Shown piece after piece: positions 34,062-64,000 of a DNA stretch of 64,000 nucleotides (the stretch's first letter is position 1; each line of letters starts with the position of its first letter). The translations under genes and the position numbers were made by a program. The stretch lies in NCBI GenBank assembly GCA_963676095.1, contig OY781040.1, forward strand, positions 5,802,705 through 5,866,704, in the 5' to 3' direction. Under the pieces are notes generated by a model. That model saw only the letters and a list, made by a program, of their open reading frames with translations. It did not search any database and was not told where the DNA came from. Source of the stretch: Prolixibacteraceae bacterium (GTDB taxonomy: Bacteria; Bacteroidota; Bacteroidia; Bacteroidales; Prolixibacteraceae).

Positions 34062-36566
34062 TCAGGGCAACATTTTGATGAAGTACCCTCCGACAACCGA
34101 CCGGGCCTGGAACCCGACTTTCTTTCCGTCTGTTGTCTCGTACCAGTCGGACATTGGTACGCGGTCCGGGGTTTCTGTTACAAAATGGTGCAGGCCTCCG
34201 ATCAGTTTTTCAAAGTCTTCCTGACTGGCAGCAAGCGTCGCCGTCCAGATTTCCCAGTCCGACTTGGTATAGGTCTTCCTGCTGTCAAGCGGTAAGCCGT
34301 ATTTGTTCAGTTTGGTCAGGTAATAGCTTATTTCCTTGCCGGCTATTTCTTTCGGGAAAATATTCAAATCCAATAGATTGTCCCATACCAGGTTGTATTT
34401 CTGGCTCCAGGTACCGGGCTGGTCGAAGGTCAGGCGGTAGTGATCGCCGTCGTTGGCCATTTTTTCCCATTCTCCGGCCATCCTTTTGGCTTCGGAAGTG
34501 TATTTTTCAGCTATGTCATTTTTTCCGAGTATCCCTGCCAGTTTCCCGTAGCAGGCAATTCCCATGATCGCCTTAACCGAGAGGTTGGTATTGTGGGCAA
34601 AGTGTCCGGCAAAGTCATCTGTACAGAGCTGGTTCTCCGGATCCAGTCCTTTTTCCAGCAGGTAATCGGCCCAGGTGCTGAGCACTTCCCAGTGCATCTC
34701 TGCGTACCGGGCATTTCCTTCAGCCCGGGCGATGGCTGCCGTCAGGATCAGCATGTTCCCGCATTCTTCTACGGGCATGTCGCCTCCGTAAGTCTGTCCG
34801 TTCGCCAGGGGATAGGTGCCCACATCATGAGCAGCAAACGGCTTGGTCCATTTTCCGCTTTCCGAGAAGTAAAAAATCGGGTTCATCATCCCTTCCAGCA
34901 ACTCCGGGTTATATTTCAGGAACAGCGGGGCTGAGGGATAAGTCACATCCACCGTCCCGATCGATCCGTTGCTAAAGTTTTCCTTAGAGAAGAACAGCGT
35001 TTCTCCCTGCGGCCCTTTTACCAGCTTATGGGCGGCAATACTTTGGCGGAAGGCCAGCACGCACAGGTCGGCATACTGTTTTCCGCCGGCCTTTACTGCT
35101 TCCGCCCACAGCCGGTTGTCGAAGGCCAGGCAGCTGTCCAGCACTATTTCCCTTTCCTGTGAGGCTAAGGTCAGGGCATTGTCCATGGTCACCTGTCCGT
35201 CTTTCTTCCACCAGGCCTGCAGGTTGTTCCCAAAGTATTGGACAGACTGGATATCGTCATAGCCCACCATCAGGTACCCTGTAGCGGTGGAGCCGACCTT
35301 TCCCAGGTTTTCGGTACAGGCCATTGCCGGCATTTCTTTAGTCATGACTGCTCTCAGATGATCTTCTCCAGCCGGAAGGGTTCCGTCTTTGGCAAAGGAC
35401 TGTTTCAGCCGGCTGTAATCGCCTATCGCCATTGCAGTACTGGCCGACTTGTCTGCTGCCAGGTAAAAGTAACCCCAGTCGATGCGAACATCGTCTCCCT
35501 TCTTCAGAAGGATTGGTTGTCCTGTCGTACCTGCTTTCAGGTAACCTATTTCCCCGGTTTCTCCCCTGCTCACTTCTACCTCTTCATCCAGCTCGTTGAC
35601 TGCCCACTGCGGGGTACCTTCAAAATAAAGCTGTACCTCGTGGCTTTTTCCATCGGCGGAGCTGACTTCATAGTTGATGTAGCTGACCGGTCTTGACAGC
35701 AGGTCGGGGTTTCCCGGCAGCAGGGGAGAGACGAAGTGAAGTGTCAGGTTTACCGGTCCGCAGGAAAACCTGTAACGCGTCTGCGTGGCCGACAGCGAGA
35801 CGCTTTTTTGTTTGGCGGTCTGTGTAAACACTTCTTTCTGGTCCGGCGTCCGGTACAGTCCGAAGTCCACATACCCGCCGCCGGTCTGGTTCTGGCAGTG
35901 TACGGCAATCAGGTTTTTTTCTCCCGGAACCAGCAGATCCCGGCTGATCTTCAGCATAACGTTGTTTTTCCATCTGTAGCCGGTATCCACCAGCTTTTCG
36001 CCGTTCAGGTACAGTTCGAATGTGTCGTCGTGGGAATATACGAGGAAGAGGTCTCCTTTCCCGGTATCCCCAGGTAGGGCAAATTCGCGTCTTACCCAGA
36101 TATCTTTGCCTGTCCAGGAGGTCGACAGGTAAGGCATCTCCGGGGTCCCGAAAGCGCCCTTCCCGGCTTTCCAGGAAGCATCTGCATAGCCTGGCTTTTC
36201 CCATCCTTTTTGAGGTTTTTGAAATGTATATTTGCCTTCCCAGAACTCATCCTTAGCCATTGGGAGGACACTCTTAAGCGGGATTTCCTCTTTCCCCAGA
36301 AAACGGAACACCTGTCCGTCCACGCGGATGGCGCCGATCAGGGGATGCACCTTTCCTGTCCAGTGACGTACCGGACTATCGTACAGGTTATCGGTTTCCG
36401 ACCAGGCGCTTGTGTACGGATCGATAGTCACTAACGGGTAAGCAGGGGCCCGTAGTTCTGTCATCTCCGGGTCCTGCCGGACAGTTTCTTTTTCCGGGGC
36501 ACAGGACGAAAAACCAATCCCTGCCAATAAAAACGCATAAATAAAATAAAATCTACTTCTCTTCAT
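34062..36566 (-). CDS. Glutaminase-A-like (DUF4965/DUF5127/DUF1793-type) secreted protein, putative glycoside hydrolase
   Basis: Lipoprotein signal (GFSSC) at the internal Met; N-terminus RAPAYPLVTIDPYTSAWSETDNLYD...IGAIRVDGQVFRFLG typical of this PUL-associated family; paralog at 52362-54854. Confidence 0.6.
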   Translation of the reverse strand: MKRSRFYFIYAFLLAGIGFSSCAPEKETVRQDPEMTELRAPAYPLVTIDPYTSAWSETDNLYDSPVRHWTGKVHPLIGAIRVDGQVFRFLGKEEIPLKSVLPMAKDEFWEGKYTFQKPQKGWEKPGYADASWKAGKGAFGTPEMPYLSTSWTGKDIWVRREFALPGDTGKGDLFLVYSHDDTFELYLNGEKLVDTGYRWKNNVMLKISRDLLVPGEKNLIAVHCQNQTGGGYVDFGLYRTPDQKEVFTQTAKQKSVSLSATQTRYRFSCGPVNLTLHFVSPLLPGNPDLLSRPVSYINYEVSSADGKSHEVQLYFEGTPQWAVNELDEEVEVSRGETGEIGYLKAGTTGQPILLKKGDDVRIDWGYFYLAADKSASTAMAIGDYSRLKQSFAKDGTLPAGEDHLRAVMTKEMPAMACTENLGKVGSTATGYLMVGYDDIQSVQYFGNNLQAWWKKDGQVTMDNALTLASQEREIVLDSCLAFDNRLWAEAVKAGGKQYADLCVLAFRQSIAAHKLVKGPQGETLFFSKENFSNGSIGTVDVTYPSAPLFLKYNPELLEGMMNPIFYFSESGKWTKPFAAHDVGTYPLANGQTYGGDMPVEECGNMLILTAAIARAEGNARYAEMHWEVLSTWADYLLEKGLDPENQLCTDDFAGHFAHNTNLSVKAIMGIACYGKLAGILGKNDIAEKYTSEAKRMAGEWEKMANDGDHYRLTFDQPGTWSQKYNLVWDNLLDLNIFPKEIAGKEISYYLTKLNKYGLPLDSRKTYTKSDWEIWTATLAASQEDFEKLIGGLHHFVTETPDRVPMSDWYETTDGKKVGFQARSVVGGYFIKMLP

Positions 36567-40056: not shown

Positions 40057-40234
40057 GGTTAACAGGTACTAATTGGTTTAGATCCTTAAAATTAGTATTT
40101 ACTTTCGTTTCTTCTATTTCTGTAATAATATTATTACCACCAACATCTCTCAATTACTCATTCCTTGTTTAATTTTTTTTTAGACATTTAAATCAGAATC
40201 ACTCGTGATAATTAAATTAACAACAACACAACAA

Positions 40235-40510
40235 AAGCCCTTTTATAAAAGCAACAACCTTGGGGGCCCGGACCGGGCAACGCCCCTCAAACGGCCGCAG
40301 GCCATCAAACTCCTCAAACGGCGAAGCCTCAAACCTTCTTAAACGGGCGAAGCCCCTTCTATTCCGCCCGAAAGAAGCAATCTGTTCTGATCAACCGTTT
40401 CCCGCGGGCGGGAGGCAATGGTCCGGATCCGCTTCTTACCCGGGGTGCCGCTCCTGACGTCGCTTACCCCGGGCTACCAAAACATGACCCCTCCGGGGCC
40501 AGGGGTGAAA
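40235..40510. repeat. Composite intergenic repeat, copy A (module 1 then module 2)
   Basis: Module 1 (40235-40366) has three caaacgg motifs; module 2 (40352-40504) is GC-rich with duplicated cttaccccggg. Matches copies B and C at about 90% identity. Confidence 0.8.
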
Positions 40511-40580
40511 CCGGTATCGTCATTATTTTAAAACACATTATCAAAATCATTCCTATTAATTAAATTAATAATGACCATCC

Positions 40581-40705
40581 AAAGCCCTTTTATAAGACCA
40601 CCACCCTTGGGAGCCCGGAACGGGCAACGCCCCTCAAACGGCCGCAGGCCATCAAACTCCTCAAACGGCGAAGCCTCAAACCTTCTCAAACGGGCGAAGC
40701 CCCTG
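40581..40705. repeat. Intergenic repeat copy B (module 1 only)
   Basis: Near-identical to 40235-40366, including the flanking aaagcccttttataa. Confidence 0.8.
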
Positions 40706-40711
40706 TCCCTT

Positions 40712-41698
40712 TTACCACTCGATAGCCTGATCTTCATCAGGTATCTGTGTATTGATTTTACGTTCCAGGATTATTGATCCTCTTACCGTGTAAGCGATGG
40801 TAGCGCCTGTAGAGGAAGTATAATCCGTGTAATTGTAATCGATATTGCTAATGGTTACGTAGCGGTGCTTCAGATAGGGGCGGGTAGCGTCCATCGTCTC
40901 TTCCACTGCAAACATGGGGGTGCTGTTCACCTTGAATTCGATATTGGGATCTTCCGCCGTAAGGGTTACGATTTTTGTTTCCTCATCAAATGAAGCGGAG
41001 ATCTTATAGCTGCGACGGTCTGTGTTTTCTTCGTCCACTGTTCCGGCATAGAAGAACACCGTGTTTTCGTCCACCACGTAAACAGGGATCTCGCTCTCGA
41101 CAATTGCTGCGTCACTCTCATAACCTTTCAGATAAACCTTCAGTGCCGTACCGCTGTACGTTCCCGAGTAGTCGTTGAAAGGCATTATACGGAGCAGTGC
41201 TTTCCGGTAGTTTTTGCGGGGGTTCGCCACGTAGTCGTACGAAGGATCGTCCACAATCGTCAGGGGAAGCACCCATTTGTCCACTAAATCGATCCCTCCC
41301 AGCGTGAGATCAATGTCCAGCAAAGATGTGTTTTCTCCTGCCCGGATGTTTACTGTGTCGGACATCGTGAAATACCTGCTGTCCAGTTCCTGATAATAAA
41401 GTTCCTCACGGCTTTGGAACCGTTCGTCGTTCAGTGTTTGCAAGGTATCGGGGTCTACCGCCACGTGGACGGTCATATCCCTGTCGTTTGTGGTCGACCC
41501 GCTGACGATCAGGGGGAGCTGGTAGGTTACTTCTCCTTCGGATTTGTACCGTACGTAGATTGGCGTCACCCCGTTGTCGTCGAGCGGGGCTTTAAAAGAG
41601 ACGTAATGCACGTATTGTTCGTCTTTCCATTCGTCGTTGCATGCGCTGAACACCACCAGCACACTCAGTAAAAATGGCAAAAAATATCTTTTTTTCAT
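40712..41698 (-). CDS. SusE/SusF-like PUL-associated surface lipoprotein (DUF4973/DUF4361-like)
   Basis: 328 aa; lipoprotein signal (VVFSACNDE); beta-rich with no catalytic motifs; located directly downstream of SusD, as SusE/F-type accessory lipoproteins are. Confidence 0.4.
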   Translation of the reverse strand: MKKRYFLPFLLSVLVVFSACNDEWKDEQYVHYVSFKAPLDDNGVTPIYVRYKSEGEVTYQLPLIVSGSTTNDRDMTVHVAVDPDTLQTLNDERFQSREELYYQELDSRYFTMSDTVNIRAGENTSLLDIDLTLGGIDLVDKWVLPLTIVDDPSYDYVANPRKNYRKALLRIMPFNDYSGTYSGTALKVYLKGYESDAAIVESEIPVYVVDENTVFFYAGTVDEENTDRRSYKISASFDEETKIVTLTAEDPNIEFKVNSTPMFAVEETMDATRPYLKHRYVTISNIDYNYTDYTSSTGATIAYTVRGSIILERKINTQIPDEDQAIEW

Positions 41699-41758
41699 TT
41701 ATTTTTCAATTTAATCATGTAAGTAATTATTTGTTTATTATATCAACCCTCGCCGCCG

Positions 41759-41985
41759 TTCCGCCCGGGGAAGATGATCTGTACTGATCAATGTTTTCCC
41801 GCGGACGGGAGGCAATGATCCGGGTCCGCTTCTTACCCGGGGTGCCGCTCCTGACGTCGCTTACCCCGGGCTACCAAAACATGACCCCTCCGGGGCCAGG
41901 GACAACGCCCCTCAAACGGCCGCAGGCCATCAAACCCTTCAAATACGAGGCCTCAAACCTTCTCAAACGGGCAACGACCCTCCTT
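41759..41985. repeat. Composite intergenic repeat, copy C (module 2 then module 1)
   Basis: Module 2 (41759-41891) then module 1 (41891-41980), the reverse of the order in copy A. Confidence 0.8.
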
Positions 41986-52361: not shown

Positions 52362-54854
52362 ATGAGAACCGATATTAAGAGAATGAAACAACTGATTTAT
52401 TTGATCTGTCTGGCGATCCTGACCGGATGCGGAAAATCCGAACAATCTTCTGTTATCAAAAATAACCTTCGTCCGCCGGCCTATCCCCTGGTAACGATTG
52501 ATCCGTACACCAGTGCCTGGTCTATGACCGACAAATTGTACAACGAACAGGTAAAACACTGGACAGGGAAAGAGTTCCCGCTGATCGGAGCGGTCCGTGT
52601 TGACGGACAAACCTATCGCTTTATGGGGGTGGAAGAACCTGCGGAGAAAACCATTGCAGCCATGTCGACAGACAGGGCCTGGGCCGGTAAATACCGGTTC
52701 GACAATCCGGGGGAAGGGTGGGAGCAACCTGAATTTGACGATTCCCGCTGGCAGGAGGGCCAGGCTTCCTTTGGCACACCCGGGGAAACAAATGTCAATA
52801 CGCTTTGGCAAACCAAGGATATCTGGGTGCGCAGGCATATCAGGATCAATGAAGACTTGTCACGCAAAAAAGTCTTTCTTAAATATTCGCACGACGATAC
52901 GTTCGAGTTATACATCAATGGAATACCCGTTGTAAAAACCGGTTATGAATGGCATAAAAATGTCGTCATTTCCCTGAATGAACAGGTAAAGGAGACATTG
53001 AAACAAGGCGAAACCGTTATTGCCGCCCACTGTAGCAATAAAACAGGAGGTGCCCTGGTCGATTTTGGCATTTCTGCTGTGGACGAAACAGAGCCCTATT
53101 TAGCTCAAACAGCAGTACAGCAATGTGCCGATGTCCAGGCCACACAAACGCATTATACGTTCGAATGCGGAAGGGTCGAACTGAAACTTACCTTTCTGGC
53201 CCCGTTATTAATGGACAACCTGGAACTGATCTCCCGGCCCGTCAATTATATCTGTTACGATGTCCGTTCGCTCGACGGCAAAAAACATGATGTACAGATC
53301 TATTTCGAAGCAGCCCGCAACTGGGCTCTGGATACCCCTTCCCAGGAAAATAAGGGCGAAGGGTATGAAAAAGACGGACTGATCTTTTTGAAAACAGGCA
53401 GCACTAATCAAAAAGTACTTGGCAAACGGGGCGATGACATCCGGATCGATTGGGGCTATTTTTACCTGTGCGGCAAAAAGGCAGACAGTTATTACCAGAC
53501 CGGGAATCCTTACCAAATGCGCCGTGAATTTGCACAAACAGGGAGACTCTCGGGGGACGCCGGTCCAAAGGATGAGGCAAGCCTGGCGATATCCCGGTCT
53601 TTGGGAGATCATAAATCTGCTTCTGGAAAGATCATGATCGGCTATGACGATATTTTTTCGATGCAATATTTCAGGGAAAACCTTCGCCCTTACTGGAACA
53701 AAGATGGCAGCAAAACAATAGAAGAGGTATTTGCCAGAGCAGATCACGACTTCGGTAAATTACGTGACCGCTGTACCCGGTTCGACCATCAGTTAATGCT
53801 CGACGCCTGGGATGCAGGAGGGAAAGAATATGCCGAGCTTTGCGCGTTGGCATACCGCCAGGCCATCTCTGCACACAAATTGATGGAATCACCGGAGGGG
53901 GACCTTCTTTTTCTATCGAAAGAGAACAACAGTAATGGCTCTATTGCAACAGTGGATGTAACTTATCCTTCGGCCCCCTTGTTTTTGTATTACAATCCCC
54001 AACTGGCAGAAGGGCTGTTGAACGCGATTTTTTATTACAGTGAAAGCGGTAAATGGGACAAACCGTTTCCCGCTCATGATATCGGTACCTATCCCTGGGG
54101 TAATGGCCAGACCTACGGAGGGGACATGCCGGTTGAAGAAGCCGGGAATATGCTGATCCTTACCACTGCCATCGCAGTCGTTGAAGGCAATGCCCGGTAC
54201 GCAGAAAAGCACTGGGATATACTCACTGTCTGGGCCGATTATCTGGCTGAAAAGGGACTCGATCCGGAAAACCAGCTCTGTACCGACGATTTTGCCGGAC
54301 ATCTTGCCCATAATGTTAACCTTTCGGCAAAAGCCATTCTGGCAATTGCCGGTTATGGCCGTCTGGCAGGAATGCTTGGAAAAAAAGATATCGCCGGAAA
54401 ATATATGCAACAGGCTAAACAGATGGCGCAATCCTGGATGAAAATGGCTGACGGCAATGATCATTACCGCCTGACATTTGACCAGCCCGGCACCTGGAGC
54501 CAAAAATATAACCTGGTATGGGACAAATTATTGGATTTAAATATTTTTCCGGAGGAAGTAACCCGGAAGGAAGTGGCCTGGTACCTCACAAGATTAAATA
54601 CTTACGGTCTGCCACTCGACAGCCGGCAGAATTATACAAAAGCCGACTGGACCGTCTGGTGTGCCTCCTTAAGCGATAACCCGGAGACTTTCCGCAAATT
54701 TATTGCGCCGCTGCACCGTTTTATGGATGAAACGACCGACCGGGTCCCGATGACCGACTGGTATAATACCGACAGTAAGAGGCAAGTCGGGTTCCGGGCC
54801 CGCTCCGTTGTCGGCGGTTACTATATCAAGATGCTGGAAAAACGCCTGCGATAG
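52362..54854 (+). CDS. Glutaminase-A-like (DUF4965-type) protein, paralog of 34062-36566
   Basis: Lipoprotein signal (LTGCGK); RPPAYPLVTIDPYTSAWSMTDKLYN...IGAVRVDGQTYRFMG, about 70% identical to the minus-strand paralog over the N-terminus; start taken at ATG 52362, which abuts the GH76-like stop. Confidence 0.6.
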   Translation: MRTDIKRMKQLIYLICLAILTGCGKSEQSSVIKNNLRPPAYPLVTIDPYTSAWSMTDKLYNEQVKHWTGKEFPLIGAVRVDGQTYRFMGVEEPAEKTIAAMSTDRAWAGKYRFDNPGEGWEQPEFDDSRWQEGQASFGTPGETNVNTLWQTKDIWVRRHIRINEDLSRKKVFLKYSHDDTFELYINGIPVVKTGYEWHKNVVISLNEQVKETLKQGETVIAAHCSNKTGGALVDFGISAVDETEPYLAQTAVQQCADVQATQTHYTFECGRVELKLTFLAPLLMDNLELISRPVNYICYDVRSLDGKKHDVQIYFEAARNWALDTPSQENKGEGYEKDGLIFLKTGSTNQKVLGKRGDDIRIDWGYFYLCGKKADSYYQTGNPYQMRREFAQTGRLSGDAGPKDEASLAISRSLGDHKSASGKIMIGYDDIFSMQYFRENLRPYWNKDGSKTIEEVFARADHDFGKLRDRCTRFDHQLMLDAWDAGGKEYAELCALAYRQAISAHKLMESPEGDLLFLSKENNSNGSIATVDVTYPSAPLFLYYNPQLAEGLLNAIFYYSESGKWDKPFPAHDIGTYPWGNGQTYGGDMPVEEAGNMLILTTAIAVVEGNARYAEKHWDILTVWADYLAEKGLDPENQLCTDDFAGHLAHNVNLSAKAILAIAGYGRLAGMLGKKDIAGKYMQQAKQMAQSWMKMADGNDHYRLTFDQPGTWSQKYNLVWDKLLDLNIFPEEVTRKEVAWYLTRLNTYGLPLDSRQNYTKADWTVWCASLSDNPETFRKFIAPLHRFMDETTDRVPMTDWYNTDSKRQVGFRARSVVGGYYIKMLEKRLR

Positions 54855-55198
54855 GCCCCAACACAAGGATCAGCGAAGGAGCACTGAACGATCACTGATG
54901 GATGGGAACCCTCATTTTCATTTTGAATTTGGTCATTCCATCCGGGCCTGATCCATCTGTGATGATTGGTTGGGGGTCAGAGGACAGGGAGATGATGGCT
55001 CCCCCAAAAGCGGAGGCTTCGGTGAGGTATTTGCTGGATAAATATTTAATTTTACAGGGGCCATTGTACAAATTAAAGATAATGGAAATATGTACGATCC
55101 ATATTGGGCAACCTCAAAGTGATTCATTTGGCGCTTCACTGCAACAGCTTTTACCTGTATTAAAGAATATTTGTTAGCTTGCATAAAAATTACAGACA

Positions 55199-55543
55199 GT
55201 GGAACAACGATTAAAAATAAAGAAGTTTTTTTCGCCGATGATCGCGATTCGGTCCTCTGTTCGTGATTTCCTGCAATCGAACATCAGGAAAGATGTTCAA
55301 AAAGTGATACTCGATTTTTCCAGTATTACTTTTATCTCAAGGTCTGCTACAGACGAGTTTCTCACTTTTTTTGAGCAGAATAAAATTGAATATCTTTTTA
55401 CAAATCAATCGGAGAACCTTGTTAGTATGTTTTCAGCCGTTAAAAATTCACGTAACCGGAAACAGAGGCGTTCATTCCGGGATGTGCCGGTTGTTTCATT
55501 CAGATCATACAAAGAGCTGAATGAATTTCTGTCTGTTTTATAA
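55199..55543 (+). CDS. Small STAS-like (DUF4325-like) hypothetical protein
   Basis: 114-aa ORF (GTG start; alternative ATG at 55238); VILDFSSITFISRSATDEFL resembles the STAS/DUF4325 core. Confidence 0.3.
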   Translation: MEQRLKIKKFFSPMIAIRSSVRDFLQSNIRKDVQKVILDFSSITFISRSATDEFLTFFEQNKIEYLFTNQSENLVSMFSAVKNSRNRKQRRSFRDVPVVSFRSYKELNEFLSVL

Positions 55544-55614
55544 TCAATATAGAATTTCTGTATGAATTAAGAATTAATTCTGACGAGACTCTTTCAGAAA
55601 TGTCATCAAAAACC

Positions 55615-55725
55615 TTATTTTTCTACGTTTTCCCCAACGTAGTCCTTTGGCAAAACGCCAAAGCGGGCTTTGAAACATTTGGCGAAATAGGATGAAGGGC
55701 AGAACACGGTTGGGCTACAAATTTC
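55615..55725 (-). pseudogene. 3'-terminal remnant of an AraC-family HTH regulator gene
   Basis: The minus-strand frame reads EICSPTVFCPSSYFAKCFKARFGVLPKDYVGENVEK-stop, matching the AraC C-terminal consensus (SYFsKvFKk.FG.tP.eY); only about 37 codons, bounded upstream by a stop. Confidence 0.5.
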
Positions 55726-55950
55726 CTACCCCTCATTGTTCGCAAAAGATAATTAAGAGCAAATTTTCTTTATTTAACTCGTATTTTGACCTGTTATTAT
55801 TGTTTTTTGACCAGAATTTCCCGTTCCGTCTGATTTTAGATTCCGACCTTCGAATTGCAAATAAATATGGAGGGAAATTTACCGAGCTTTATTCTGGAAA
55901 CGGATAAAGCATAAAGAACATTTATTTAATACAAATCATAAATCGCCGAA

Positions 55951-56649
55951 GTGGTCATGGTGTTCATTATTACAAATTTTATAATTGTTCTCACTGAAAA
56001 TCAATTACCAATGAAAAAATTAACTAAAAAGAACCTAAAGCAATTGTCTGAAACAATGACACATCTCACAAAAACAGAACAGCGCAATTGTGTCGGCGCC
56101 GAAAACTATTATTCTCCTTCGGGTGAATTTTTGGGGCATTATGGTAATAGCGACGAAATTAGGGTTGTTTCCGATTTTTTTTGAACAATATCTCAGTGAT
56201 ATTCCAGGTATTAACATGCATAATTACAGCACCTCACTATTTAGGTCAAGCAATAGTGCGCAAAATAATGTTATCGGGACTATTGCCCAACATCTTGATA
56301 TCGACGCACATTTATATATTAGCGGTATTATGGATGACAATGGGAACCCGCTCTTTACAACTGCTGGAAGCACCTATCTGCGCATGACCCTTATGGAAGC
56401 TATATCGTGATAAATAGTCTATCTTATACATTTCAAAATGGTAACCAAAACGACATACTTTGCACACTTGTTCATGAATACGACCATTATGAAAATTACG
56501 ATCCAGAAACATATGACAAAGCTATGTCAGAGTATTTAGCTTATTACAATACGATTCATAATGACTATTTTCAGAACGTCTCGGACGAATATAGGTACGG
56601 AGTGTTGCGACAATACGAATATTATGGAAGAATTACTTCACAATATTAG
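55951..56649 (+). pseudogene. Frameshifted copy of the leader-HExxH protein gene (cassette copy 1)
   Basis: Coding spans frames 1, 2, 1 (ORFs 55951-56184, 56090-56410, 56407-56649). Relative to the intact copy there is a +1 in a T7 to T8 run near 56177 and a -1 near 56388. Confidence 0.7.
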
Positions 56650-56654
56650 ATACC

Positions 56655-57422
56655 ATGAAGAAAAAAATACTATATCCCTTCTTGTATCTCGCTATGGGCG
56701 TAATGCAAGTGTTTGGGCAGGAATACGAACAAACAGTAGAAGTCACTACTGATGAGTTTTCGGGCAGGCTGTTGAAAACTTCGGATGAATTATACATGGG
56801 GGATCATGCAGACAAATATTTAATGAATAAGTCACCTTTGTCGTTTTTTAAAGGATATAAAAGCATCTTCGGTGGTGATTCTAAAGAACCTAAAAAAAAT
56901 CAGGGATCTGAGAAATCTAAAAACTATATGATATCTACTTTCGTTATCCCATATCCAGCAGTTCGTTTTGGAGAAGTTGGATATAGTGAGAAAGAGTATA
57001 CTGCCTACTGGATATTGTTAGATGAACAACTATATCTCTGTAAGATTGATTTTCCGGATAGCGTTAATAAAGAACAAACGGTTTATCCCGCTATGGAGAA
57101 ATTTACAGGCGTGTGTTTTTCTAAAAGGAATGCACCATCAAACGACGGTCTTGGGGAGATATATGGACTTATGCCAGCCACATGGTTTACCGATACGCTA
57201 TATGTGAAAAAAGCAGTTACTAAAGAAGACCCTTTTATGCCGCTTGATTCGTGGGAAGTGAAGCCATATTGGCAGATGATATTCAACAAAGGAAAATTAA
57301 CTTCCAAAAAGATAGTTGACAATAAAATGCACACTCGGAAAATAACTGTACCCAGAAGAAAATTACCTCGAAAAAAGACAAGTCCTGTCATTAAAAAGGT
57401 GCCGCAAGAATTGGAAGACTAA
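56655..57422 (+). CDS. Secreted 255-aa protein with basic C-terminal tail (cassette copy 1; candidate immunity/partner protein)
   Basis: Signal peptide (LYLAMGVMQVFGQE); Lys/Arg-rich tail (HTRKITVPRRKLPRKKTSPVIKKVPQELED); about 90% identical to 63095-63862. Confidence 0.6.
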   Translation: MKKKILYPFLYLAMGVMQVFGQEYEQTVEVTTDEFSGRLLKTSDELYMGDHADKYLMNKSPLSFFKGYKSIFGGDSKEPKKNQGSEKSKNYMISTFVIPYPAVRFGEVGYSEKEYTAYWILLDEQLYLCKIDFPDSVNKEQTVYPAMEKFTGVCFSKRNAPSNDGLGEIYGLMPATWFTDTLYVKKAVTKEDPFMPLDSWEVKPYWQMIFNKGKLTSKKIVDNKMHTRKITVPRRKLPRKKTSPVIKKVPQELED

Positions 57423-57730
57423 TCAATTATACAGAAAGAGAAATTCCCTGCACCCGGATTATTGAGCATAAACATTTTGAGTTTGGGAACCAACCCAAAA
57501 CGATTATAACAAGGGAATATCCTCAATCCTGGAGACCTGGTTCAGAACCTTACTATCCGGTCAATACGGAGAAGAACAATTCGATTTACAAGAAATATAA
57601 GGAGTTAGCAGTAAAAGAAAGGAATATTTATTTTGGCGGACGTTTAGGTTTCTACAAATATTATAATATGGACCAAGTGGTAGAAGCAGCTTTGGAGCTA
57701 TACAATCATATTACAATATCAGATAGTTAA
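57422..57730 (+). pseudogene. 3' fragment (about 100 codons) of a UDP-galactopyranose mutase gene
   Basis: About 95% nucleotide identity to 60227-60526 (INYTEREIP...GGRLG.YKYYNMDQVV), with no start codon and no upstream part. It is joined to the cassette end through the shared pentamer taatc. Confidence 0.8.
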
Positions 57731-57740
57731 AACAATAAAA

Positions 57741-58166
57741 ATGGACGAGGTAAAAAAATGCCCTAAATGCAATGCTGAAGTTGACGATAGCTTTGGTGTA
57801 TGCTGGAATTGTCAGTACAGCTTTATTGAAGAGAGAATTTTGGACGACACCGATCTTGTATTGGTCTGCCCCAAGTGCCACAGCGAAATTGGGTCCTCCG
57901 TAAGTTACTGTCCTCAGTGTCATTATGATTTAAGGAAAATCCTTAAAGAAAGCGGAATAAAGCCGCAGGGTCCCAAAAACATTGACTGCTTGCGATGCAA
58001 AGTGCCTCTTGAGTATCAGGGTAATTTTAAATTCCATGAAGGCACAAGGATCGGAGCATTCGGCAATCTGTTTGAGTTGTTTACAAACAGAGAATCATTC
58101 GATTTGTATTGTTGTCCCAGTTGCGGAAAAGTGGAGTTTTTTCTACCTGGATTTGATACAAAATAA
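57741..58166 (+). CDS. Cytoplasmic multi-zinc-ribbon protein (at least five CxxC pairs)
   Basis: 141 aa; CPKC, CWNC, CPKC, CPQC, CLRC and CPSC pairs; no signal peptide. Confidence 0.5.
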   Translation: MDEVKKCPKCNAEVDDSFGVCWNCQYSFIEERILDDTDLVLVCPKCHSEIGSSVSYCPQCHYDLRKILKESGIKPQGPKNIDCLRCKVPLEYQGNFKFHEGTRIGAFGNLFELFTNRESFDLYCCPSCGKVEFFLPGFDTK

Positions 58167-58290
58167 ACGAAACTTTGGGTTGTTGACCTGATTTCATTAT
58201 GAAAAATCTCAAAACCTACATTTATTTCACCATAAAAATAAGTGACCAAAGACTTTTTTATACCAATAAAATGCTGATAAAACGCCAAAA

Positions 58291-59190
58291 ATGAAACCAA
58301 TAATCAAACTTACAATCCTGTTTTTATCAATTCTATTTATATTTGCAGCTGCAAAACGGACTGACGTTCAGAAAGCCGTTGCAGAACAAATTGTTACAAC
58401 ATCCGATAGCGTCGCCATACAAGAAGCCATCGCGGAGATTAGGAGTTTTTATGTGGCTTATACGGCCAACCTCCTATCTGATAACTCTTCCCCTGATTCT
58501 CTCATGGAAAAGTATTTGACCAGAAGACTGATAGAAAAAGTGGAAAGAATGAGAACAGCAATAGGCGCCGATCCCATTATTCGTGCACAAGATTTCACTG
58601 AAGATGCCAGAAAAACATTAGATATAAAATATTTAGACGGAAATTGGTTTATGGTTGGCTATAGCTATTCCTTGTTCGGAAGTAAAGATACCGTTTATAT
58701 GAATATTCCATTAAGAGTAATCCAAACAGACGGACGGTACTTGATCGATTATATCACACCGGAATGGAATGGTTCCCTTTACGGAGACAGTTTGCTGTAT
58801 GATCATCCTATGCCGCAACCGATAGATGCTTCCGCTCCTCTGTCATTACTGAAAACTTTTTATGCTGCCTATACGATGACATATTGTAGTATGCCTGAAG
58901 AACTGATATCTCAACTTGCAGCGTTACGTGAAAAGTAAACCCCCAATGCTTTGGCTCAATTTGCGTCTGCAGCAAATGAGTATAGTCTGGATGGTTCAAT
59001 GGGATACGATCTAATGATTGACTATTTTGATTTTGACCGGTTGTGGCTTCCTTCCGTAAAATTTACCCAACTGGATGAAGACACTTACCAAATGTGTTAC
59101 ACAAAGTGGAAAACTCCCTGTACCATTGAGCTAAAAGTAATCAGGCAAGGTAAGGAATACCGGATTGACAGTATAATCAGGAGCATATGA
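58291..59190 (+). CDS. Secreted hypothetical protein whose reading frame is interrupted by one in-frame TAA at 58936-58938
   Basis: ORFs 58291-58938 (signal peptide) and 58951-59190 are in the same frame, separated only by one TAA and four sense codons. Confidence 0.35.
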
Positions 59191-59425
59191 TTATTGTCAT
59201 TAATTTATAGAACCTCTTTCCACCCTGTTCCTCATTGCAGTGTTTATTGCACAGCACTGCAATGAGGTGTACATGGCTTGGTGAGGCTGGATAAAAAGAA
59301 TTTAGTAAGGAATATATCAGTGCCAGATCATAGGGATTTTTTAGAAAATTTTAAGCTTAAAAACATGAAATAAAAAACCGGCATATTCATTTAAAGCACA
59401 TAGAAATCAATTATGGTGGAATGCG

Positions 59426-60526
59426 ATGAAGAAATTTAAATATGATTATCTTTTTGTTGGAGCAGGGTTATTCAATGCGATAATTGCCCGGGAGGCTTCA
59501 AAACGGGGCAAGAAATGTCTTGTAATTGAGAAACGGGATCATATCGGAGGCAACCTGTATTGCGAAAATATAGAGGGCATTAATGTTCACAGATACGGAG
59601 CTCATATTTTCCATACTGACAACAAATTTATATGGAAATATATGGAAGAATTGTGCGAGTTCAATCATTATATAAATTCGCCATTGGCCAGGTATAAGAA
59701 CGAGCTTTACAATTTGCCGTTTAACATGAATACTTTCAGTCGTTTATGGGGATTGTACACCCCACAGGAAGTCGCGCGCAAAATTGATGAACAAAGGTTG
59801 AAATGCATTATTCCTGCAAACTTTGAAGAGCAAGCATTACATCTTGTGGGAACAGACGTATATGAAAAGCTCATTAAAGGATATACGGAAAAACAATGGG
59901 GTAGGGAAGCCAAATCCTTACCTGCTTTTATCATCAAACGTGTTCCGATACGGTTCACTTATAACAATAATTATTTCGATGGTGTTTATCAGGGCATCCC
60001 TAAAGGTGGATTCAATCCTATATTCGAGAAATGTTTCGCGAAGTGTGACATTTACACCAATACTGATTTTTTTGAACACAGAGAGATCGTTAGGTCAGCA
60101 GAAAAAACGATTTTTAGCGGGATGATCGACCAATATTATGATTATTGCTTTGGTCAGTTAGAATACAGGTCGCTTTATTTTGAAGACGAGGTAATTGATG
60201 CCTTCAATTATCAGGGTAATGCTGTAATCAATTATACAGAAAGAGAAATTCCCTACACCCGGATTATCGAGCATAAACATTTTGAGTTTGGGAACCAACC
60301 CAAAACGATTATAACAAGGGAATATCCTCAATCCTGGAGACCTGGTTCAGAACCTTACTATCCGGTCAATACGGAGAAGAACAATTCGATTTACAAGAAA
60401 TATAAGGAGTTAGCAGTAAAAGAAAGGAATATTTATTTTGGCGGACGTTTAGGTTCCTACAAATATTACAATATGGATCAAGTGGTAGGAGCAGCTTTGG
60501 AACTATATGCTTATATTGAATCATAG
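59426..60526 (+). CDS. glf: UDP-galactopyranose mutase
   Basis: 366 aa; N-terminal FAD-binding motif (YDYLFVGAGLFNAIIAREASKRGKKCLVIEKRDHIGGN); HIFHT block; length and sequence typical of UGM. Confidence 0.9.
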   Translation: MKKFKYDYLFVGAGLFNAIIAREASKRGKKCLVIEKRDHIGGNLYCENIEGINVHRYGAHIFHTDNKFIWKYMEELCEFNHYINSPLARYKNELYNLPFNMNTFSRLWGLYTPQEVARKIDEQRLKCIIPANFEEQALHLVGTDVYEKLIKGYTEKQWGREAKSLPAFIIKRVPIRFTYNNNYFDGVYQGIPKGGFNPIFEKCFAKCDIYTNTDFFEHREIVRSAEKTIFSGMIDQYYDYCFGQLEYRSLYFEDEVIDAFNYQGNAVINYTEREIPYTRIIEHKHFEFGNQPKTIITREYPQSWRPGSEPYYPVNTEKNNSIYKKYKELAVKERNIYFGGRLGSYKYYNMDQVVGAALELYAYIES

Positions 60527-61977
60527 CTGTCCGGAATTCTTAATTAGGAAAAAAGCTCAAAAATTCAAAATTTTAAGGCGACAAAACACTTAAAAAAGAA
60601 TTATGAGCTTTCCGATGCATAAAAATACAAAAAAGTCTGACATACCATTGTTCGGACAGTTAATTGATTTGATTCCCCGTCACATTCTGATAACAAGTAT
60701 CGACAAATATCAAACGGATAAATATTGTAGCAATTACAAAACCTACGACCAACTTGTAGCATTAATGTTCGGACAGCTGAATAAATGCACGAGCCACCGC
60801 GAGATTTGTATCGGGTTGGGCGGTGACGAAAAATTTCTCAGGGACATTGGGTTGAGCCAAAGCCCGGCACGTTCCACCATGAGCGATGGCAATGCCAAAC
60901 GCAACTATGAAGTATTCTGCGAGATATACCACAAGCTGGTGGAACATTACCGAAATGTTTTTAGTAAACGCCCCGGGTATAAAGAGATAAAGGAAATTGA
61001 AGGGAAAAACATCAAATTGGTCGATGCCACCATAATGAGCGTTTGCCTTAGCCTCTTCGAATGGGCCTCATACCGGACAGCTAAAGGAGGCATAAAGGCA
61101 CATGTGAGCCTTGACGAGAAAACAATGTTGCCTGAGATTATAAACATTACCGAAGCCAAACTAAGCGACAGGCGAGGGGTTGACGGATTCCGTTACCCCA
61201 AAGACACCATTGTTGTTGACGACCGGGGATATTTTGATTTTTCCCTGTTCAAACAAAGGGTCGACGACCAAAACATCTTTATCACACGGATGAAATCAAA
61301 TACGGTGTACCAGGAAATAGAAGAACTTGACCTGCCGGACGACCGTGATTTTGAAATTCTCAAAGACGAAACTATAAAATTAAGCAGTGTTGCTGCCGTC
61401 GAAGCAGGGATGGACGATATAACACTAAGGCGTGTTGCCATTTATTTTGAAGAAACCGACCGTAAGACAAAAACAAAAAAACACAAGGTAATAGCACTGG
61501 TAACAAATAACCTTGATTGGGATGCTTCCGTCATTGCGGAACTGTATAAAAGAAGGTGGTATATCGAAACATTTTTCAAGCTGATGAAACAAAACCTCCA
61601 GATAAAGAACTTCCTTGGAACCAGTGAGAATGCCTGCAAATCGCAAATCTATGTTGCACTGATCTGCTATTTTCTGCTCGAACTGGTAAGACGGACCGCA
61701 ACAAAGGCCACGCACCGCTTTGGGCATTTTATAACGCTGATAAGGGTCTGCCTCATAAAATATGAGGTGATGGAATATATCGTCAATGATATCCGTACGG
61801 TTGTGAAAAAAGTGAATGATTACAAAAAACGGCAGGACGACAAACAGATGGCGCTAAATTTAAAGACCGGCTAAAATAGTTTTGCCTGTTTTTCTGAAAT
61901 TTAAAAAAATAAACACTTGATCTCAACTTAGTTATGAAATAAAAATCATTTTTTTCATAAAATCCCGGACACTTATG
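60522..61977 (+). mobile_element. IS4-family-like insertion sequence (about 1.46 kb) with imperfect ~20-bp terminal inverted repeats and a 9-bp target-site duplication
   Basis: Left end catagctgtccggaattctta; reverse complement of the right end cataagtgtccgggattttat; 16 of 20 positions match. Flanking direct repeat atattgaat at 60513-60521 and 61978-61986. Single transposase ORF inside. Confidence 0.75.
60603..61874 (+). CDS. DDE transposase (IS4-family-like)
   Basis: 423 aa; DDE transposase-like organisation (VDATIMSV...IVVDDRGYFDF...YKRRWYIETFFKLMKQ); the E-containing YIETFFK motif is typical of the IS4/IS5 superfamily. Confidence 0.75.
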   Translation: MSFPMHKNTKKSDIPLFGQLIDLIPRHILITSIDKYQTDKYCSNYKTYDQLVALMFGQLNKCTSHREICIGLGGDEKFLRDIGLSQSPARSTMSDGNAKRNYEVFCEIYHKLVEHYRNVFSKRPGYKEIKEIEGKNIKLVDATIMSVCLSLFEWASYRTAKGGIKAHVSLDEKTMLPEIINITEAKLSDRRGVDGFRYPKDTIVVDDRGYFDFSLFKQRVDDQNIFITRMKSNTVYQEIEELDLPDDRDFEILKDETIKLSSVAAVEAGMDDITLRRVAIYFEETDRKTKTKKHKVIALVTNNLDWDASVIAELYKRRWYIETFFKLMKQNLQIKNFLGTSENACKSQIYVALICYFLLELVRRTATKATHRFGHFITLIRVCLIKYEVMEYIVNDIRTVVKKVNDYKKRQDDKQMALNLKTG

Positions 61978-62054
61978 ATATTGAATGAATTATTGATACC
62001 GCTTTTTTCTGGAAAAGAGGCCTCCTGATTAACATCCGTACACATTCAAAAACC

Positions 62055-62165
62055 TTATTTTTCCATGTTTTCCCCAACGTAGTCCTTTGGCAAAACGCCA
62101 AAGCGGGCTTTGAAACATTTAGCGAAATAGGATGAAGAGCAGAACACAGTTGGGCTACAAATTTC
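62055..62165 (-). pseudogene. AraC-family C-terminal remnant (copy 2)
   Basis: Same remnant as 55615-55725 with two substitutions near the stop. Confidence 0.45.
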
Positions 62166-62450
62166 CTACCCCTCATTGTTCGCAAAAGATAATTAAGAGC
62201 AAATTTTCTTTATTTAACTCGTATTTTGACCTGTTATTATTGTTTTTTGACCAGAATTTCCCGTTCCGTCTGATTTTAGATTCCGACCTTCGAATTGCAA
62301 ATAAATATGGAGGGAAATTTACCGAGCTTTATTCTGGAAACGGATAAAGCATAAAGAACATTTATTTAATACAAATCATAAATCGCCGAAGTGGTCATGG
62401 TGTTCATTATTACAAATTTTATAATTGTTCTCACTGAAAATCAATTACCA

Positions 62451-63089
62451 ATGAAAAAATTAACTAAAAAGAACCTAAAGCAATTGTCTGAAACAATGAC
62501 ACATCTCACAAAAACAGAACAGCGCAATTGTGTCGGCGCCGAAAACTATTATTCTCCTTCGGGTGAATTTTTGGGTCATTATGGGGAAAGCCACGAAATT
62601 AGGGTTGTTTCCGATTTTTTTGAACAATATCTCAGCGATATTCCAGGTATTAACATGTATAATTACAGCACCTCACTATTTATGTCAAGCAATAGTGCGC
62701 AAAATAATGTTATTGGGACCTTGGTAGAACGTCTTGGTTATGATTTAAATGTATATGTTAGTGGTATTTGGGATGACAATGGGAACCCGCTTTTGACAAC
62801 TGCAGGAAGCACCTATCATGCGCAAGACCCTTATGGAAGCTATACAGTGATAAATAGTCTATCTTATACATTTCAAAATGGTAACCAAAACGACATACTT
62901 TGCACACTTATTCATGAATACGATCATGTTATAAGTTACGATCCAGAAACATATGACAAAGCTATGTCAGAGTATTTAGCTTATTACAATACGATTCATA
63001 ATGACTATTTTCAGTACGTCTCGGACGAATATAGGGACGGAGTGTTGCGACAATACGAATATTATGGAAGAATTACTTCACAATATTAG
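62451..63089 (+). CDS. Protein with Bacteroidales double-glycine-type leader and HExxH motif (candidate leader-exported metallo-effector)
   Basis: N-terminus MKKLTKKNLKQLSETMTHLTKTEQRNCVGA matches the Bacteroidetes GG-leader pattern (Lys-rich, LxxL, EQ, then a small-residue pair) and lacks a Sec signal; HEYDH motif at LIHEYDHV with Glu/Tyr-rich downstream helix. The ORF as called starts at 62391; the Met at 62451 opens the leader. Confidence 0.55.
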   Translation: MKKLTKKNLKQLSETMTHLTKTEQRNCVGAENYYSPSGEFLGHYGESHEIRVVSDFFEQYLSDIPGINMYNYSTSLFMSSNSAQNNVIGTLVERLGYDLNVYVSGIWDDNGNPLLTTAGSTYHAQDPYGSYTVINSLSYTFQNGNQNDILCTLIHEYDHVISYDPETYDKAMSEYLAYYNTIHNDYFQYVSDEYRDGVLRQYEYYGRITSQY

Positions 63090-63094
63090 ATGTC

Positions 63095-63862
63095 ATGAAG
63101 AAAAAAATACCATTTTGCTTTTTGTATCTCGCTATGGGCGTAATGCAAGTGTCTGCACAGGAATACGAACAAACAGTAGAAGTCACTACTGATGAGTTTT
63201 CGGGCAGGCTGTTGAAAACTTCGGATGAATTATACATGGGGGATCATGCAGACAAATATTTAATGAATAAGTCACCTTTATCCTTTTTTAAAGGATATAA
63301 GAGCATCTTCGGTGGTGATTCTAAAGAACCTAAAAAAAATCAGGGATCTGAGAAATCTAAAAACTATATGATAACAACTTTCGTTATCCCACATCCAGCA
63401 GTTCGTTTTGGAGAAGTTGGATATAGTGAGAAAGAGTATACTGCCTACTGGATATTGTTAGATGAACAACTATATCTCTGTAAGATTGATTTTCCGGATA
63501 GCGTTAATAAAGAACAAACGGCTTATCCCGATATGGAGAAATTTACAGGCGTGCGTTTTTCTAAAAGGGATGTACCGACAAACGAAGGTCCTGGAGATAT
63601 CTTTGGATTTATGCCAGCCTTATGGTTTACCGATACGCTATATGTGAAAAAAGCAGTTACTAAAGAAGACCCTTATATGCCGCCTGATTTCTGGAAAGCG
63701 AAGCCATATTTGCAGATGATATTCAACAAAGGAAAATTAACTTCCAAAAAGATAGTTGACAATAAAATGCACACTCGGAAAATAACTGTACCCAGAAGAA
63801 AAATACCTCGAAAAAAGACAAGTCCTGTCATTAAAAAGGTGCCGCAAGAATTGGAAGACTAA
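63095..63862 (+). CDS. Secreted 255-aa basic-tailed partner protein (cassette copy 2)
   Basis: Signal peptide and same architecture as 56655-57422; starts 6 bp after the HExxH gene stop, suggesting translational coupling. Confidence 0.6.
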   Translation: MKKKIPFCFLYLAMGVMQVSAQEYEQTVEVTTDEFSGRLLKTSDELYMGDHADKYLMNKSPLSFFKGYKSIFGGDSKEPKKNQGSEKSKNYMITTFVIPHPAVRFGEVGYSEKEYTAYWILLDEQLYLCKIDFPDSVNKEQTAYPDMEKFTGVRFSKRDVPTNEGPGDIFGFMPALWFTDTLYVKKAVTKEDPYMPPDFWKAKPYLQMIFNKGKLTSKKIVDNKMHTRKITVPRRKIPRKKTSPVIKKVPQELED

Positions 63863-64000
63863 TCCTAAAATAGTACGGGATAAAGATGAAGTCATCCACT
63901 ATTCAAAGCACGGCTCCTTTTAACTGTCATAGTTTAAGACCGGCTAAAAAATGGCAGAAGACAAGACAATTTGGAGCAATTTTGGGGTCAAGTCCCGCTC

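Follow-up and report, generated by a model that had tools for sequence, protein, structure and literature searches.

A duplicated leader-peptidase and partner cassette in a Prolixibacteraceae genome, a probable bacteriocin-like toxin-immunity module with one disrupted toxin gene

In dense communities, modules of toxin and immunity protein influence how strains compete, and so do orphan immunity genes; the cases described in Bacteroidales are so far mainly type VI secretion system (T6SS) effectors and a handful of secreted toxins. Comparable orphan immunity is known from the cdiA-CT/cdiI modules of contact-dependent inhibition (CDI). In the Bacteroidales T6SS, orphan immunity genes, along with acquired interbacterial defence, are well documented (PMC12247911, PMC10470768). 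We analysed a 64,000-nt stretch (the window) from the genome of a Prolixibacteraceae bacterium (contig OY781040.1, positions 5,802,705 to 5,866,704 of the forward strand), in which a two-gene cassette occurs twice. The first gene of the cassette codes for a small HExxH protein with an N-terminal leader and the second for an exported partner protein. In copy 1 the first gene is broken by two single-nucleotide insertions or deletions (indels) and the partner gene is intact. We read the cassette as a two-gene bacteriocin-like toxin-immunity module in which the copy 1 toxin was recently inactivated and its immunity gene was kept, and put the probability of this reading at roughly 70%.

The described toxin domain to be compared with the HExxH protein is Tox-MPTase2 (PF15638), which Zhang et al. 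(2012, PMC3482391) describe as specific to Bacteroidetes, linked to RHS proteins and lacking any known immunity protein. The two share an HExxH core, the restriction to Bacteroidetes and a size of ~180-200 aa. However, the described form of Tox-MPTase2 is the C-terminal tip of RHS/TcdB-TcaC-type proteins (PMC3482391), whereas in the window a double-glycine leader precedes a free-standing domain, which is linked in its orthologs to a C39-peptidase ABC transporter (PCAT) and an HlyD-family protein and has a dedicated downstream partner. Double-glycine leaders and PCAT export are classical for small bacteriocins, including bacteroidetocins (PMC11901371), which have a 15-aa leader, a 42-aa mature peptide and no described immunity gene (PMC11901371; PMC10352776). 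The cassettes resemble these bacteriocins and the class II microcins of the ColV/CvaAB type in the GG or GA leader, in PCAT and HlyD genes beside orthologs, in an immunity-like gene downstream and in tandem cassette arrays (PMC11901371; PMC10352776), but their cargo is a ~180-aa enzyme in place of a peptide below 10 kDa.

As in T6SS and CDI orphan immunity, the partner genes are kept, diversify and spread in the absence of a working cognate toxin (copy 1 and loci L003, L004, L007/L020 and L021, described below). The differences are that the toxin in the window is predicted to be diffusible and PCAT-exported, with no T6SS or CDI delivery, and that the orphan partners are single genes in varied contexts with no recombinase-associated island. 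Similarity to the minigluzincins (selecase MJ1213, PDB 4qhf/4qhj) was not significant, and selecase has no leader or toxin role and a different N-terminal subdomain. A 2025 review lists six types of contact-independent Bacteroidales toxin, and the HExxH leader-toxin family is not among them (PMC11901371). The literature that we searched described no enzyme-sized Tox-MPTase2-like toxin behind a double-glycine leader, no linkage of such a toxin to PCAT and no dedicated immunity family. The locus is a known kind of system in a new form.

Comparison of the window with itself by blastn aligned 55606-57424 with 62046-63864 at 95.06% identity over 1823 columns (E = 0), at a constant offset of 6440 bp, and this was the sole strong direct repeat in the self-comparison. 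A first-pass annotation made from the letters alone had described collinear copies with this offset at about 90-95% identity, in agreement with our alignment. All cassette features lie on the forward strand. Copy 2 consists of a conserved upstream region delimited by the self-comparison (62046-62450), an intact toxin gene (62451-63089) and an intact gene for a 255-aa partner, the predicted cognate immunity protein (63095-63862), which starts 5 nt downstream of the toxin gene. The copy 2 toxin frame is a single open reading frame (ORF) at 62391-63089; we placed the true start at the ATG at 62451 because ortholog homology begins there. The resulting protein has 212 aa, a leader at residues 1-30 that ends in G29-A30, the motif H155-E156-x-x-H159 and E174. 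Copy 1 has the corresponding conserved non-coding upstream region at 55606-56010 (5/405 positions unlike copy 2), followed by a toxin pseudogene at 56011-56649, delimited from ORFs and base-level alignment, that retains the coding sequence for a double-glycine leader and a Tox-MPTase2-like HExxH peptidase. Its partner gene (56655-57422) is intact and codes for a Sec-exported 255-aa protein, a predicted immunity protein that would now be functionally orphaned.

The lesions in the copy 1 toxin gene were read directly from the base-level alignment of the two copies. An extra T makes a run of T8 at 56175-56182, against T7 in copy 2, and the run leads directly into a TGA at 56182-56184, so that the frame ends at 56184. 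Between 56378 and 56379 one A is absent (TATC-TGCGCA in copy 1 vs TATCATGCGCA in copy 2), and between the two indels ~66 codons are out of frame. The toxin is broken into three ORFs (55951-56184, 56090-56410 and 56407-56649), and the source annotation called only a 75-aa fragment of it. The other alignment gaps, at 56297/56302 and 56487/56491-2, are compensated pairs within diverged patches and cause no frameshift. When the gene was repaired in silico by taking one T out and putting one A in, a stop-free 212-aa ORF resulted, 88% identical to copy 2. Three first-pass claims held at base level: the T8 run against T7 near 56177, the end of the frame at 56184 and the intact 255-aa partner. The claimed compensating deletion is real but was placed near 56388, ~10 nt from its true position, and the loss of frame is likewise real but covers ~66 codons and not ~70. 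At the T-run site every intact relative carries T7 or another sequence and needs no frame shift. The exact DNA pattern across the copy 1 T-run had no match in the JGI metagenomes; leader-based scans of metagenomes and GTDB genomes returned relatives at <=47% identity only, none of them scorable for T7/T8 in a copy 1-type toxin.

The window toxin had no match in Pfam or NCBIfam scans, and only three close clusters were found among 5.8 billion proteins. An exhaustive hidden Markov model search recovered 140 representative clusters (at 50% identity) of ~200-aa proteins with a common leader. The N-terminus of the family consists of the leader MKKLTKKxLdELAkvMPVLSExEQRxxxGG, after which comes YYxxxGxxLGxxGxSxEIR. 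Six residues, G29, G38, H155, E156, H159 and E174, were invariant in 28/28 diverse members, and H155, E156 and H159 are present in both window copies (in copy 1 after repair). Judged by the alignment, this invariant set comprises a putative cleavage-site glycine and a gluzincin-type H-E-H...E arrangement. In a structure predicted by AlphaFold2 (AF2) from a 17-sequence alignment, with a predicted local distance difference test score (pLDDT) of 81, E174 falls in a helix at 170-182; a model from a 4-sequence alignment (pLDDT 44) was unusable. PDB profile searches gave a best E of 0.18 for the toxin family, and no significant structural match was found.

Homology to a known toxin domain was detected through other members of the family. 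Ten of the 28 members matched Tox-MPTase2 (PF15638), with a best E of 3.9e-5; the window toxin itself lies below the gathering threshold and had no match to this model even at E <= 1. In one RHS-core protein, P0144, the family domain follows directly after the RHS core and begins exactly at the position of the GG site. This protein matched Pfam Tox-MPTase2 with E 3.1e-6 and the family profile with 97.5% probability and E 6.9e-12 (hhalign). The RHS architecture was found in P0144 only, whereas the window toxin is a stand-alone protein of 212 aa with its leader at the N-terminus. In P0172 the common leader precedes Toxin-JAB1, and in other proteins it is joined to unrelated C-terminal parts; such swapping of a leader among C-terminal domains appears to follow the modular logic of polymorphic toxins. 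The mature ~180-aa domain is predicted to be a distant Tox-MPTase2-like zinc metallopeptidase of the gluzincin type.

The leader of the window proteins has 30 residues (MKKLTKKNLKQLSETM..L...EQR.CVGA). Its G29 is invariant across the family, most members have G at position 30 but the window clade has A, and the leader is kept even among relatives at 25-45% overall identity. Relatives matched the curated Bacteroidetes GG-leader model TIGR04149 with E 0.003-0.005 (17 bits, against a cutoff of 25), and the window leader with E = 1. With leader-model matches below threshold, the proposed PCAT export route rests more on gene linkage. The orthologous pair of L014 (42%/41% identity) comes directly after an HlyD-family gene and a gene for a 728-aa Peptidase_C39/ABC_membrane/ABC_tran transporter, which has the peptidase domain (Peptidase_C39, E 1.4e-33) and the ABC domains of a PCAT; three further pairs of leader-toxin and signal-peptide protein and a 'GT4-conflict' glycosyltransferase gene stand ahead of the pair and the exporter. 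In L015 (Proteiniphilum acetatigenes) the 3' end of a PCAT gene lies 1.27 kb upstream of the toxin leader, and in L001 HlyD-family fragments matching residues 341-458, a remnant of an exporter, occur immediately downstream of the toxin-partner pair (11540-11888). A PCAT/HlyD exporter is likewise present, with sister toxins, in L016 and L019. Within the 64-kb window no PCAT or HlyD gene was found.

Two further observations concern the surroundings of these toxins. L014 (666-11410), L016 (10001-17807), L018 and L019 contain arrays of varied double-glycine-leader proteins, with a signal-peptide or membrane protein after each one, alongside a 'GT4-conflict' glycosyltransferase gene, an HlyD gene and a PCAT gene; three tandem 197-aa paralogs occur in L016. 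By their gene content, these arrays look like a polymorphic secreted-toxin type of locus. LanC-like genes lie directly upstream of a toxin ortholog in L008 (335-1279) and L009 (71-1015) and a few genes downstream in L005/L011 (4253-5176), and the LanC-like gene of Proteiniphilum acetatigenes sits among glycosyltransferases. With such neighbours, the toxins might be modified.

The partner protein had no match in Pfam, NCBIfam or PDB profile searches. Its homologs form 14 clusters, all from Bacteroidales and among them several Dysgonomonadaceae genera such as Proteiniphilum and Fermentimonas. The N-terminus is a Sec signal peptide with a conserved ...FAQ (A/Q) junction, which we take to fit the 'Q-rule' of Bacteroidetes signal peptidase I. 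Of the 48 positions that are invariant in the family, the copy 1 partner retains every one. Linkage to the toxin was constant: the partner lies directly downstream of the toxin at every orthologous locus with downstream DNA available (at least 10 loci with unrelated flanks: window copies 1 and 2, L001, L002, L005/6/11, L008/9, L010, L012, L013 and L014), and the close orthologs with downstream DNA available, a small sample, included no locus with a toxin alone. At least three cassette copies occur in L011, L012 and L015 (Proteiniphilum acetatigenes DSM 18083); they lie at the ends of contigs or on contigs of 1.4 kb, and in L012 the order is toxin-partner-toxin in direct tandem. Such multi-copy cassette arrays break short-read assemblies.

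The reverse case, an intact partner without an intact toxin, was found in four other independent arrangements (L003, L004, L007/L020 and L021). No trace of a toxin gene lies beside the partner in L003 and L004, only the last 37 toxin codons are left beside it in L007 and L020, the latter a short-read assembly, and in L021 the partner comes directly after a DUF3828-like gene. The ratio of nonsynonymous to synonymous substitution rates (dN/dS) among orphan partners was 0.18-0.5, and on this basis we consider that they are maintained by purifying selection. The asymmetry, with partners that outlive toxins, appears to fit an immunity gene and not an accessory factor needed by the peptidase. Copy 1 shows the same orphan immunity pattern, a partner with all 48 invariant positions beside a toxin with two frameshifts. 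The orphan-immunity-like reading that the first pass had proposed for copy 1 gains support from the link to Tox-MPTase2 and RHS, the leader and PCAT/HlyD linkage, the constant adjacency of the partner and the recurrent orphans under selection.

Divergence between the two window copies was unevenly distributed. The 405 nt upstream of the toxin gene contain 5 mismatches and the first 44 codons a single synonymous change; over 55606-56140 vs 62046-62580 this amounts to 6 differences in ~537 nt, against ~7% in the remaining cassette. The near-identity of the upstream and leader region suggests gene conversion or strong constraint. Part of the upstream region (55759-55893) survives in the orphan locus L020. 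A search of 54800-64000 with Rfam found no family, and a scan for sigma-70 promoters gave 11 sites, with 9.6 expected by chance, and identified no promoter. In the toxin part of this remaining cassette the number of synonymous substitutions per site (dS) between copies was ~0.13, and the differences cluster at residues 91-107 and 160-162. Differences in the partner cluster in its C-terminal half, at residues 143-206, with a dN/dS of 1.57 between copies. The variant toxin patches of copy 1 (IAQHLDIDAHLY and HEYDHYENYDP) are shared with the intact ortholog P0002, for which reason they appear to be allelic variation and not decay, and copy 1-type partner residues are also found in several orphans. 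The copies are best read, from these comparisons, as two diverged alleles and not as an original and its degraded duplicate, and the alleles possibly represent two specificities.

We propose the following working model, in which toxicity, leader cleavage, the export route, periplasmic action and neutralisation by the partner are steps that we infer from sequence. The 212-aa pre-toxin would be cut after G29-A30 and the toxin exported by a PCAT and an HlyD protein encoded elsewhere in the genome. The mature zinc peptidase would then attack neighbouring cells, probably at the cell envelope, a site of action proposed because the antidote is Sec-exported. The Sec-exported periplasmic partner would neutralise the toxin. 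Copy 1 would have lost its toxin through two independent 1-nt indels and kept its immunity gene, with the consequence that the strain would produce one type of toxin, that of copy 2, and stay protected against both.

Four other explanations were weighed, and two of them question the DNA itself. For an assembly duplication of a single locus, an alternative raised in the first-pass annotation, speak the position of the repeat near the window end and the cassette repeats that break the L002, L011, L012 and L015 assemblies. This explanation is excluded: the copies differ by 5% (82 mismatches), their left and right flanks are unlike, an IS4-family insertion sequence with its target-site duplication is found at copy 2 only, and the independent metagenome assembly L002 contains a copy 1-type (97.4%) and a copy 2-type (98%) cassette in tandem, with a fragment of glf (the UDP-galactopyranose mutase gene) after each and no insertion sequence. 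We regard it as distinctly improbable that copy 1 is truly intact, with both 1-nt indels introduced by mistakes in the consensus or polishing of a long-read assembly at a repeat of 95% identity. A T7/T8 homopolymer is a classic site of long-read error, the two indels compensate each other in a toxin gene that is otherwise undamaged, and the source is a single 7.64-Mb contig and so probably a long-read assembly. However, the second indel lies outside any homopolymer (TATC[A]TGCG), and the genome appears well assembled, in that none of the 42 homopolymers of at least 7 nt (11 of them at least 8 nt) in the 50.7 kb of intact long ORFs of the window breaks a frame. Decay in the vicinity is also real, as seen in a stop-creating 3-nt deletion in a neighbouring gene and in the insertion sequence with its perfect target-site duplication, and the loss of the toxin with retention of the partner recurs in the four other arrangements, one of them in a short-read assembly.

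The other two explanations accept the sequence and read it differently. In one of them copy 1 is regulated, through a slipped-strand T7/T8 phase switch, as the first pass had suggested as an alternative, or through a programmed +1 frameshift. The sequence at 56175-56184 reads GAU UUU UUU UGA A, a prfB-like +1 slippery/stop site at which a +1 slip on UUU before UGA yields exactly the conserved DFFEQY, and the length of the T-run varies between copies and between strains. Nevertheless, the shifted frame ends at 56408-56410, ahead of HExxH, owing to the second indel, which lies in no slippery or repeat context; a change from T8 to T7 alone would leave the frameshift at the non-repeat site 56378/56379, so that one slip cannot restore the gene, and intact relatives need no shift. 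The strand-slippage switch is excluded on these grounds, the +1 frameshift at UUU UGA was rejected owing to the second indel, and the prfB-like site is probably coincidental, given the second frameshift downstream; regulation of copy 1 as a whole is very improbable. The remaining explanation, which we hold to be unlikely, is that the pair consists of a secreted peptidase or a long-core precursor similar to those of ribosomally synthesised peptides that carry post-translational modifications (RiPPs) and of a periplasmic accessory, signalling or chaperone protein. The toxicity of the family is deduced from sequence, LanC-like and glycosyltransferase genes adjoin some orthologs, and a survey of Bacteroidales RiPPs reported similar clusters, with LanC-like genes, of a 'long-core precursor followed by a signalling protein' (PMC10352776). 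Against this, an RHS protein has the mature domain, a relative of Tox-MPTase2, as its C-terminal tip, and further toxin domains, Toxin-JAB1 among them, are found behind the same leader. A needed accessory would not persist under purifying selection after loss of the peptidase, yet this was seen at least four times, and diversification in the C-terminal half of the partner is as expected of a specificity interface.

The neighbourhood of the cassettes, on the forward strand, contains several repeats and damaged genes. At the stop codon of its partner gene, copy 1 is joined through a 5-nt microhomology (TAATC) to a 283-bp piece of the 3' end of glf (57420-57702; 97.5% identity with 60225-60507). 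The continuation of this piece agrees with another version of the glf 3' end, one that in L003 is contiguous with the zinc-ribbon gene. The unit of cassette and glf fragment is tandemly repeated in L002, an arrangement compatible with movement of cassettes through recombination between repeats of the glf fragment. A solitary piece of ~130 bp in L002 (10064-10193), made of the glf end and the first 90 nt of the cassette, lies far from the cassettes between a DUF5128 gene and a gene for a hybrid two-component regulator, and may be a recombination scar. Next comes a gene for a 141-aa zinc-ribbon protein with multiple CxxC motifs (57741-58166), which in L002, L003 and L021 is conserved as a neighbour of the partner, of the DUF3828-like gene or of both. 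The DUF3828-like gene of the window (58291-59190) is interrupted by an in-frame TAA at 58936-58938, which arose through the loss of 3 nt, judged against the intact ortholog in L002 (304 aa), and is a second damaged gene near copy 1. In L013 a DUF3828-like signal-peptide protein comes after another leader-toxin, and by this position the DUF3828-like gene may be another immunity-type gene.

Full-length glf lies at 59426-60526; its stop codon was replaced by an insertion that added one residue. The inserted element is an IS4-family insertion sequence of 1456 bp (60522-61977) with a transposase gene at 60603-61874 and imperfect inverted repeats (CATAGCTGTCCGG and CATAAGTGTCCGG). It separates glf from copy 2, with its insertion point precisely at the stop codon of glf, is flanked by a perfect 9-bp target-site duplication (ATATTGAAT, at 60513-60521 and 61978-61986) and is absent from the otherwise collinear L002. 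Beyond this neighbourhood the window contains polysaccharide-utilisation genes. Short direct repeats of 75-166 bp with 89-91% identity (40192-41972) lie on either side of a 328-aa ORF on the reverse strand (40712-41698). An inverted repeat with 77% identity, 53952-54572 vs 34332-34952, ties the gene for an 882-aa GtaA-type glycoside hydrolase upstream of copy 1 to a paralog at ~34 kb, and 3'-end fragments of this hydrolase gene come after the orphan partners in L003, L007 and L020.

The decay pattern itself is ordinary and would not surprise a specialist; the toxin family is barely described. The window represents an early stage of toxin loss with immunity kept, and the related genomes show the end state. 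The toxin-immunity idea is directly testable with two small genes. We give even odds to a wider proposal, that the cassettes belong to an unrecognised class of diffusible Bacteroidales bacteriocins that are enzyme-sized, double-glycine-led and PCAT-exported, each with a Sec-exported immunity family, and whose immunity orphans circulate and persist. If so, the sister genes of this bacteriocin class would carry Toxin-JAB1 and uncharacterised domains, and the partner would give Tox-MPTase2-type toxins, without a known immunity family since 2012, their first one. The cassettes would then be the secreted-toxin counterpart of T6SS orphan immunity, or 'acquired interbacterial defence'.

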